Below, in pieces: positions 10,635-11,778 of a stretch of 33,748 nucleotides of DNA (position 1 is the first letter of the stretch; each line of letters begins with the position of its first letter). This stretch comes from a virus (Duplodnaviria; Heunggongvirae; Uroviricota; Caudoviricetes). The notes below the pieces were generated by a model that was not told where the DNA came from, did not search any database, and was given only the letters and a program-made list of their open reading frames with translations. The translations under genes and the position numbers were made by a program. The stretch lies in IMG/VR virus record IMGVR_UViG_2718218139_000002. One strand, written 5' to 3'.

Positions 10635-11201
10635 ATGGCTAAACCAGCGCGAAGACGATGTAACCGTAAAAGAGAAGATTTAACTGTTAAAAGGATATTT
10701 GAGTTACTAAGTTTCGATAAATCTACCGGGGTATTTAGATGGAAAGTTCCCACTCAGGGAAGGATAGCATTAAATAGTGTTGCTGGAACTTTTGATTCCA
10801 ACGGTTATTCAATGATCATGATAGATGGGCGTAGATATAAAACTCACGTCTTAGTTTTTTACATAACTCATAATCGTTGGCCTGCTGGTCAAATTGACCA
10901 CGTTAATGGAATTAGGACCGACAATAGGCCAGAAAATTTAAGAGAATGCCTGCCAATAGAAAATTCAAGAAATATAAGGATCCGAAAGAATAGCAAATCA
11001 GGTTGCAGAGGGGTTACTTGGCACAAACGACAGAAAAAATGGAATGTTAGGCTAGGATTCCATGGCAAGAGTAAACACTTCGGATGCTTTGATGATCTGG
11101 AGTTAGCGGTACTAGTTGCTGAAGAAGCCCGAGATAAGTATTACGGTGATTTTTCCGGCAACGAAAGGAGCACTTATGCGAATCTATCGAAGGAGATGTA
11201 A
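10635..11201 (+). CDS. HNH homing endonuclease (HNH_3 plus AP2 DNA-binding domain)
   Basis: [29 protein letters not shown] is the HNH_3 motif and [37 protein letters not shown] is AP2-like. ATG 10635 follows GGAGGAAG. The first 9 residues, MAKPARRRC, equal the lambda NinG N-terminus as remembered. Confidence 0.85.
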
Positions 11202-11778
11202 ATGTTGCAATGAATGGTTTATACCAAAATATCAAAATCAATATTGGTGTAATGAGATTTGTGGAACCAAGATAGCACTCGAACGACGAAGTAAAGAACG
11301 CGAAAAAGCGGAAAAAGCAGCAGAGAAGAAACGACGACGAGAGGAGCAGAAACAGAAAGATAAACTTAAGATTCGAAAACTCGCCTTAAAGCCCCGCAGT
11401 TACTGGATTAAACAAGCCCAACAAGCCGTAAACGCCTTCATCAGAGAAAGAGACCGCGACTTACCATGTATCTCGTGCGGAACGCTCACGTCTGCTCAGT
11501 GGGATGCCGGACATTACCGGACAACTGCTGCGGCACCTCAACTCCGATTTGATGAACGCAATATTCACAAGCAATGCGTGGTGTGCAACCAGCACAAAAG
11601 CGGAAATCTCGTTCCGTATCGCGTCGAACTGATTAGCCGCATCGGGCAGGAAGCAGTAGAGGAAATCGAATCAAACCATAACCGCTATCGCTGGACTGTC
11701 GAAGAGTGCAGGGCCATCAAGGCGGAGTATCAACAGAAACTTAAAAAACTGCGAAACAGCAGAAGTGAGGTTGCATGA
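11176..11778 (+). CDS. ninG: NinG/Rap structure-specific endonuclease with a replaced N-terminus
   Basis: From [60 protein letters not shown] onward it is near-identical to lambda NinG. The new start [15 protein letters not shown] follows AAAGGAG and overlaps the HNH gene by 26 nt. Confidence 0.9.

Follow-up and report, generated by a model that had tools for sequence, protein, structure and literature searches.

The DNA considered here is a window of 33,748 nucleotides (nt), the whole stretch analyzed, from the IMG/VR virus record IMGVR_UViG_2718218139_000002. The window is a lambdoid Escherichia coli prophage; strain ECO2947 has a prophage that is 99.9% identical to it in this region. Between positions 10635 and 11778, it contains an open reading frame (ORF) for an HNH protein that begins with the start codon and the first nine codons of the phage gene ninG (also called rap), and this ORF is followed by a complete ninG with a start codon of its own. 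The arrangement is probably that of a free-standing homing endonuclease gene (HEG) of the HNH_3 plus AP2 type, which resides in the 5′ end of ninG and was established there by intronless homing, together with a co-imported flank of donor sequence. An earlier description of this DNA, hereafter the sequence-only reading, had proposed such an architecture, and the results presented below support it; the homing itself is plausible, as judged from the sequences. The mobile element is clear but not of a new kind, and roughly one complete E. coli genome in ten carries it.

The exact borders of the element, its distribution, its low diversity, its linkage with a variant ninG 5′ end, its foreign composition, and its intact catalytic motif all fit with intronless homing. 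From these features, we infer that the HNH enzyme is active, that it cuts the 5′ region of ninG, and that the endonuclease, rather than mosaic recombination, drives the spread of the element.

Borders of the cassette and the two ends of ninG

The upstream end of the HNH ORF is made of ninG sequence. Homology with phages that carry ninF followed by ninG starts at about 10618–10622, i.e., 13–17 nt upstream of the ATG (megablast, query from 10400), which indicates that the end of ninF, with its stop region, and the ribosome-binding site of ninG have been retained. The segment 10618–10634 (plus strand) thus holds a ninF 3′ remnant and the ninG Shine–Dalgarno (SD) sequence GGAGG (10621–10625), which now serves the HNH ORF. 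It is followed, at 10635–10663 (plus strand), by a lambda-type ninG 5′ vestige, consisting of the nine codons for MAKPARRRC plus 2 nt, that opens the HNH ORF. These 29 nt (ATGGCTAAACCAGCGCGAAGACGATGTAA) match lambda-type ninG exactly and occur only once in the window; no match was obtained in 100 shuffles of the window, even when three mismatches were allowed. The sequence-only reading had stated that lambda NinG starts with MAKPARRRC and that the HNH ORF therefore opens with the lambda NinG N-terminus. The first point is borne out by the translated Nin204/NinG of lambda (J02459), and the second by the identity of 10635–10663 with lambda-type ninG DNA.

The left border of homology falls at 10663. 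As the ATG, the SD sequence, and the first nine codons of ninG are fused in frame to the HNH ORF, the HNH protein would be translated from the ninG initiation signals, within the nin (delayed-early) transcript. No promoter-like site was found upstream of the HNH gene. Across the left junction lies an imperfect tandem duplication of 20/21 nt (10653–10693, plus strand; Tandem Repeats Finder score 54, 80% matches), one of only three arrays with a score of at least 50 in the 33.7-kb window. Its two units, AGACGATGTAACCGTAAAAG and AGAAGATTTAACTGTTAAAAG, are in different reading frames. This duplication may be a scar of junction formation, left by microhomology or template switch, or it may be due to chance.

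Downstream of the vestige, an AT-rich cassette of 596 nt (10664–11259, plus strand; GC content 0.378) occupies the site where 64 nt of lambda-type ninG would otherwise follow codon 9. This cassette comprises the body of the HNH gene and an 84-nt variant ninG 5′ end. The GC content is 0.391 in the HNH-specific part and 0.516 in the 64 nt that were replaced. The borders were determined by comparison with lambda of E. coli O111:H- strain 11128, in which homology stops at ...CGATGTAA and restarts at TGTGGAACC, so that 64 nt become 596 nt; the right arm of this strain is 99.2% identical to lambda over 740 nt. More generally, the spacing between conserved anchors is 596 nt in all 43 loci with the HNH gene (HNH+; 595 nt in one frameshifted copy) and 64 nt in all 24 loci without it (HNH-). 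Alignment with uninterrupted ninG alleles, which had been suggested as a check, gave the same borders at every scorable locus. The sequence-only reading was therefore right about the site, the 5′ end of ninG, but not about a pure insertion, since the event is a replacement of 64 nt by 596 nt (532 nt net) between the borders 10663 and 11260.

Strain 11128 also provides a simple left context for the element. Its gene order is ninE–ninF–HNH–ninG–ninH, with a lambda-type ninF that runs straight into the HNH ORF in one aligned piece, and this ninF–HNH junction is contiguous in 29 genomes. When the cassette of this strain was exchanged for the 64 nt of lambda and the reconstructed empty site was queried against E. 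coli genomes, it was found as one contiguous piece, with 98–98.6% identity, in many of them. Filled and empty sites share their gene order, lambda being one of the empty cases, and the element is thus polymorphic for presence or absence at one fixed site among homologous genomes. In IMG/VR, no matched HNH+/HNH- pairs with both 1-kb flanks near identical were found, because the left flanks are mosaic.

At its right end, the cassette provides ninG with a new beginning. The re-initiated ninG/rap gene (11176–11778, plus strand) encodes 200 amino acids from an ATG at 11176. This ATG lies 26 nt before the end of the HNH ORF and 5 nt behind an SD sequence of its own, AAAGGAG (11164–11170, plus strand), within the HNH 3′ end, exactly as the sequence-only reading had described. 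Alignment to lambda divides the gene into two parts. The first 84 nt (11176–11259, plus strand), which encode 28 amino acids, form a variant and AT-rich 5′ segment with a GC content of only 0.298. The remainder (11260–11778, plus strand; GC content 0.489) is a lambda-type ninG body that constitutes the right homology arm; its identity is about 97% with lambda and 98% with HK544-type phages, which agrees with the near-identity to lambda that had been claimed for the region past the variant N-terminus. The variant segment is proposed as both a candidate co-imported donor flank and a candidate immune target site.

Because the 3′ end of the cassette supplies an alternative 5′ end with SD sequence and ATG, full-length NinG can still be made. 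That the re-initiated product is full length is confirmed by its match to the Pfam NinG family (PF05766; E = 4.4e-84), which covers profile positions 5–192 of 193. Its cysteine cluster aligns with that of lambda NinG (CKCC...C...C vs. CKNDEC...C...C), and all four N-terminal cysteines are kept. The host protein is thus not divided in two, as just nine codons are upstream of the HNH body and the downstream ORF spans the whole NinG profile. Among the 43 HNH+ loci, the NinG ORF has 200 or 203 amino acids in 38; a premature stop is present in three, and the end of the contig is reached in two.

As previously noted, the codons for RRRC are present twice in the window; the two versions differ at two of 14 positions: CGAAGACGATGTAA at 10650–10663 and its direct repeat CGAAGGAGATGTAA at 11188–11201 (plus strand; 12/14 bases identical). 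The second copy ends in the TAA that stops the HNH ORF. Repeats of this type, with at least two matches, arose in three of 100 shuffles. In most other copies of the cassette, the second motif is RRKC: NinG restarts with MRIYRRRC in the window and in ECO2947, and with MRIYRRKC in 41 of 43 cassette copies. This change, at window position 11194 (cassette position 532), is synonymous (E187) in the overlapping HNH frame. For RNA hairpins that would sequester either of the two ribosome-binding sites, as in T4 HEGs, folding was no better than in shuffles (z = 0.09 and 0.69).

The HNH protein and related systems

The endonuclease ORF (10635–11201, plus strand; ATG at 10635, TAA at 11199–11201) encodes an HNH_3/AP2 protein of 188 amino acids. 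It matches Pfam HNH_3 with 42.7 bits (cutoff 24.8; E = 4.2e-11) and phrog_99, a family of HNH endonucleases (E = 1.4e-71). An AP2 domain at residues 123–171 was detected by Pfam with E = 1.8e-4 and 22.2 bits, under the cutoff of 33.3 bits. In an alignment with 15 homologues, residues D88, H89, N101, L102, R103, and N110 are invariant, and the ORF is intact in 42 of the 43 HNH+ loci. No match to this protein was found in PADLOC or NCBIfam, and neither it nor NinG gave a significant sequence match to solved structures.

The AlphaFold model of the protein has a mean predicted local distance difference test (pLDDT) score of 87.8. Its top fold match in the PDB is I-HmuI (1U3E), with a probability of 1.00 but a Foldseek E of only 0.012 and 18% sequence identity. 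For the C-terminal domain, the matches are AP2 domains from plants and apicomplexans, including those of WRI1, AtERF1, and TEM1 (probability 0.97–1.00; root-mean-square deviation 1.1–2.0 Å over 48–61 columns). The model thus predicts a catalytic HNH motif in a beta-beta-alpha-metal fold and, in the AP2 domain, a separate module for DNA binding. The protein had been labeled NUMOD/HNH_3/AP2. Of this label, HNH_3 stands on the Pfam match and AP2 on the fold, its Pfam score being below the cutoff, while NUMOD is not supported, as no NUMOD1, NUMOD3, or NUMOD4 model was matched at E <= 0.01 in the Pfam scan of the HNH ORF.

Both ends of the protein differ from the core. In the model, confidence is low for residues 1–10 (mean pLDDT 65), which are ninG-derived, and for residues 180–188 (pLDDT below 50), the tail that overlaps ninG. 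Other HNH_3 proteins are homologous to it only from about residue 16 onward, and these homologues have just 2–8 residues ahead of the conserved L..LL.YD..TG.F.WK block, which supports the view that the first nine HNH codons are additions derived from ninG. Similarly, the final 12 or so residues, which overlap the ninG restart, run past the usual C-terminus of the homologues.

The HNH gene has its own ORF with its own stop, and the host gene restarts separately; it is therefore free-standing and not located in an intron or intein. The RNA around the junctions showed no intron-like structure. Its nearest relatives, with 40–44% identity, are HNH-AP2 endonucleases of lytic phages (HNH_3 plus AP2; phrog_99), which are annotated as free-standing homing endonucleases of Jersey-like and T5-like phages. 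The genomes of these phages carry several such genes each (5020 places in 3059 records). As the nearest true relatives are below 45% identity, their cleavage specificity is not transferable to the protein studied here.

The framework of intronless homing, as well as the transposition of HEGs into coding regions, has been established for T4-type phages (PMC2988022). The element in ninG resembles the free-standing Seg and Mob HEGs of T4 in several respects: the ORF is in neither an intron nor an intein, its presence at a fixed site varies between related phages, the flanking host sequence differs between HEG+ and HEG- genomes, as expected from co-conversion, and the predicted chemistry is of the HNH type, as in the Mob proteins. 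Unlike these, the element is hosted by a temperate lambdoid E. coli prophage and not by a lytic T-even phage; it is fused to the start and first nine codons of its neighbor instead of being intergenic, it includes an AP2 module, and it is known here from sequence. HEGs have also been described within coding regions, namely mobE in nrdA of Aeromonas phage Aeh1, mobA in T4 gene 39/60, and seg43(25) in gene 43 (PMC2988022). In these cases, as in ninG, an endonuclease gene is inside a host coding sequence whose function survives. However, the host product is there split into two polypeptides that reassemble, whereas here NinG is single and full length, with a vestige of nine codons upstream.

The nearest lambdoid precedent is gene 31 of the P22-like phage epsilon34, in which an eaE-like N-terminus is fused in frame to an HNH HEG (PMC2629481). 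The likeness is in the temperate lambdoid/P22-like host and in the capture, in frame, of the N-terminus and start of a resident gene by an HNH HEG. In contrast to the ninG case, the epsilon34 gene is located in the early-left ea region, it belongs to another HNH lineage, related to enzymes of Lactobacillus phages, and a replacement 5′ end for the interrupted gene was not reported. As for I-HmuI, it is the best structural match for the N-terminal and catalytic part of the HNH protein, but it is an intron-encoded nickase with a different C-terminal DNA-binding module. In the open-access full text, no paper on the relationship between an HNH gene and ninG was found.

Distribution, linkage, and competing explanations

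With a 595-nt cassette as the query, 5426 complete E. coli genomes were searched. The cassette was found in 537 of them, at 570 chromosomal places, and with at least 99% identity in 535. All of these places are annotated as HNH endonuclease plus NinG; hundreds of RefSeq genomes thus label the cassette merely by these two names. It is also carried by two Stx1-converting phages, AU6Stx1 and SH2026Stx1, and it is not mentioned in the genome announcement of the latter. The search for the same HNH gene at the same site in other phages, as the sequence-only reading had suggested, therefore yielded 537 E. coli genomes, these two Stx1 phages, and 56 IMG/VR contigs. Up to three copies are present per genome, with a median of two ninG-related places, in polylysogenic Shiga toxin-producing E. 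coli (STEC).

The cassette is far more uniform than its surroundings. It was found in at least six immediate left contexts, with at least four ninF alleles among them, and in at least five right contexts. Its nucleotide diversity is 0.3%, vs. 1.2–4.5% for the ninG body next to it in these loci, i.e., 4–15 times lower; the loci were ascertained by an exact 29-nt pattern inside the cassette, a constraint that leaves the 512-nt HNH part untouched. Among the 41 HNH+ loci with enough ninG sequence, 21 haplotypes of the ninG body were distinguished. A near-identical element is thus present in diverse backgrounds, which indicates recent horizontal spread, with many of the copies belonging to clonal O157:H7.

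In addition, the HNH gene and the variant ninG 5′ segment are strictly linked. The former is directly upstream of the latter in all 55 scorable IMG/VR loci, with 0–6 mismatches in 562 nt, the exception being a copy in which a 1-nt deletion causes a shift. In a set of 337 phage records, the variant NinG N-terminus was found at 95% identity or more in only four, all of them HNH+, and other alleles have at most 68% identity (protein). The variant 5′ end without the HNH gene was never found in the IMG/VR loci, the phage records, or the E. coli genomes. The recoded 84-nt segment, with a GC content of 0.30, is thus exclusively linked to the HNH gene. The proposal that a donor flank came along with the endonuclease gene gains support from this linkage and from the GC content of the segment, 30% vs. 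52% in the sequence that was replaced. Strain PK8241 had appeared to have the HNH gene without the variant ninG; this candidate was rejected, as it contains a secondary IS3 insertion between the two genes.

A possible course of events can be proposed on this basis. The enzyme would nick or cut ninG in another lambdoid phage that is resident in the same cell or co-infects it, provided that the 5′ segment of this ninG is of lambda type and uninterrupted. Repair would then copy the cassette from the HNH+ genome, with homology provided on the left by ninF and the ninG start and on the right by the ninG body. HNH+ genomes would be shielded from self-cleavage by their variant 5′ segment. The founding event may be pictured as the joining, to a lambda-type phage, of a donor in which the HNH gene was upstream of its own AT-rich ninG allele. 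On the left, the join was probably a one-off illegitimate event, in frame by chance or by selection; on the right, it would have been a homologous crossover with this unsampled AT-rich donor in a conserved stretch of ninG.

Several observations weigh against such a history. Neither a donor with an intermediate HNH gene nor a free variant ninG allele was found. A word-indexed search of 5.8 billion proteins yielded a single tight HNH cluster (99% identity), the next proteins being at 44%; with the 42-residue variant NinG N-terminus as the query, only partial NinG entries of E. coli were retrieved; and in a scan of GTDB species representatives, the best match was a 39% relative in a metagenome-assembled genome of Planctomycetota. 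The variants of the HNH gene, with seven synonymous vs. eight non-synonymous changes, do not indicate strong purifying selection. The low diversity was estimated from loci chosen by an exact pattern inside the cassette, except that the 512-nt HNH part is unaffected by this choice. The abundance of the element is largely clonal, since about half of the carriers (about 280 genomes of O157:H7 type) share one IS30-truncated context. No fixed differences between HNH+ and HNH- loci were found in the first 400 nt or so of the ninG body, and no co-conversion gradient was seen there, the conserved flanks giving low power. Finally, homologous recombination between conserved flanks is expected to produce the same distribution.

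This last point leads to the strongest of the alternatives. The cassette could be a passive mosaic module, acquired once in an illegitimate, moron-like gain and subsequently shuffled by homologous recombination via its ninF and ninG flanks, with the endonuclease being inactive or irrelevant. Consistent with this, the junction between ninF and ninG hosts other cassettes (the 89-residue ORF of strain CP52E and a PAPS-reductase-family gene, both described below), and other ninG alleles, such as the 933W type, likewise diverge over their N-terminal 38 or so codons before returning to the conserved sequence at nearly the same position. Together with the missing gradient, the large share of clonal O157:H7 copies, and the 7:8 ratio, these observations keep passive shuffling a live alternative. 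However, shuffling sits uneasily with a cassette that has 0.3% diversity next to a ninG body with 1.2–4.5%, across many backgrounds, and with an ORF and a catalytic motif that are intact in 42/43 loci and a sequence that is at least 99% identical in 535/537 genomes. Moreover, the family of the gene behaves as multi-copy free-standing HEGs, and a recoded segment of the host gene that is exclusively linked to the HEG is a specific expectation of homing. For these reasons, a passive origin seems unlikely to us, although it deserves to be taken seriously.

Alternatively, the enzyme may have been domesticated as a nuclease for competition or exclusion, which harms rival phages with a lambda-type ninG or aids NinG/Rap recombination, self-copying being a by-product. 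The T4 Seg and Mob enzymes cause marker exclusion (PMC2988022). In the present case, the tight coupling to ninG, with a 26-nt overlap and a shared transcript, would be in line with such a role, as would the maintenance of intact copies, up to three cassettes per genome, in polylysogenic STEC. On the other hand, NinG is non-essential in lambda, and a rival would thus be harmed only via the DNA break. In addition, no PADLOC defense model was matched, and the sequence data do not separate this hypothesis from plain homing. Domestication of this kind therefore appears improbable. A chance resemblance or an artifact of assembly or annotation can be dismissed, because the exact 29-nt match with its upstream ninF and SD homology was not reached in 100 shuffles and the same structure recurs in 537 complete genomes, two Stx1 phages, and 56 IMG/VR contigs.

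If the enzyme is active, the element would represent a natural case of such homing in temperate lambdoid phages, including prophages of O157:H7, O111, O26, and O145 strains as well as Stx1 phages. To our knowledge, experimental knowledge of intronless homing comes almost entirely from lytic T-even phages. The architecture would also illustrate how a selfish gene can enter a coding sequence without an intron, by borrowing the start of its host gene and bringing along a spare 5′ end. Furthermore, breaks made by such a nuclease in the nin region, close ahead of Q and, in Stx1 phages, upstream of stx, could favor gene conversion and mosaic exchange among prophages that share a cell. A more far-reaching version of the hypothesis, which we offer only tentatively, is that an active HEG of lambdoid and Stx prophages targets the 5′ segment of ninG/rap that codes for the zinc ribbon. 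This might explain why this segment, of about 90 nt, has several sharply bounded allele types among lambdoid phages (lambda, 933W, and AT-rich), and breaks near Q and stx when polylysogens are induced might drive recombination and the exchange of modules among STEC prophages.

Gene neighborhood and the ninF–ninG junction

In the window, the genes upstream of the element are, in order, those for a cI-like repressor, NinB, a Dam methylase, and NinE, followed by an ORF of 590 codons on the minus strand (8317–10089). Downstream of ninG are the genes for a NinI-type phosphatase (11775–12440) and then Q (12437–13060). The direct upstream neighbor of the HNH ORF is therefore not ninF, of which about 17 nt of the 3′ end are left, but an AT-rich moron. 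The 590-codon ORF (GC content 0.35) takes the place of most of ninF, in the manner of a moron-like insertion. Its only match is phrog_9230, a family of unknown function, with none in Pfam, PADLOC, or NCBIfam. A perfect (TATTTC)x5.8 microsatellite follows at 10406–10440, within the stretch 10090–10617 that separates this ORF from the ninF remnant. In O157:H7 genomes, this moron is also present but ends prematurely in an IS30 fragment near window position 10406, and their left context was accordingly rejected as an independent one. An intermediate form, with the moron next to an intact ninG, was looked for and not found.

More generally, the boundary between ninF and ninG acts as a hot spot at which alternative cassettes occur. 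In E. coli CP52E (NZ_CP075731.1; positions 1139–1408 of the extracted locus), an unrelated ORF of 89 amino acids and unknown function is located exactly at this junction; it reuses the position of the ATG, and the ninG downstream of it is intact, of lambda type, and has a separate ATG. In other genomes, a PAPS-reductase-family gene is present at the same junction. E. coli 14EC007 (NZ_CP024131.1; positions 3034–3782 of the extracted locus) carries, within ninF, a different and truncated gene of the HNH_3 type (MLTIDGVITYAHHVIWMINNGEIPLGYKIDHINGVRSDNRLSNLRLV...). Lying immediately before the ninG cassette, this second HNH_3 gene has broken up ninF, whose 5′ portion now ends in a new tail and whose 3′ portion is left as a fragment. 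This suggests that the ninF–ninG area has been invaded repeatedly by HEGs.

Two further features of the window are unconnected with ninG. In the early-left or accessory region (391–3857), adjacent ORFs of 825 and 330 codons overlap by 4 nt. Neither was matched in Pfam, PHROGs, PADLOC, or NCBIfam, and the pair may be an uncharacterized accessory or defense-type operon. Downstream of Q, two ORFs for IS3-family transposases (rve), at 14613–15431 (plus strand) and 17352–18191 (minus strand), have opposite orientations and indicate insertions of such elements in the late-gene leader or lysis region of the prophage.

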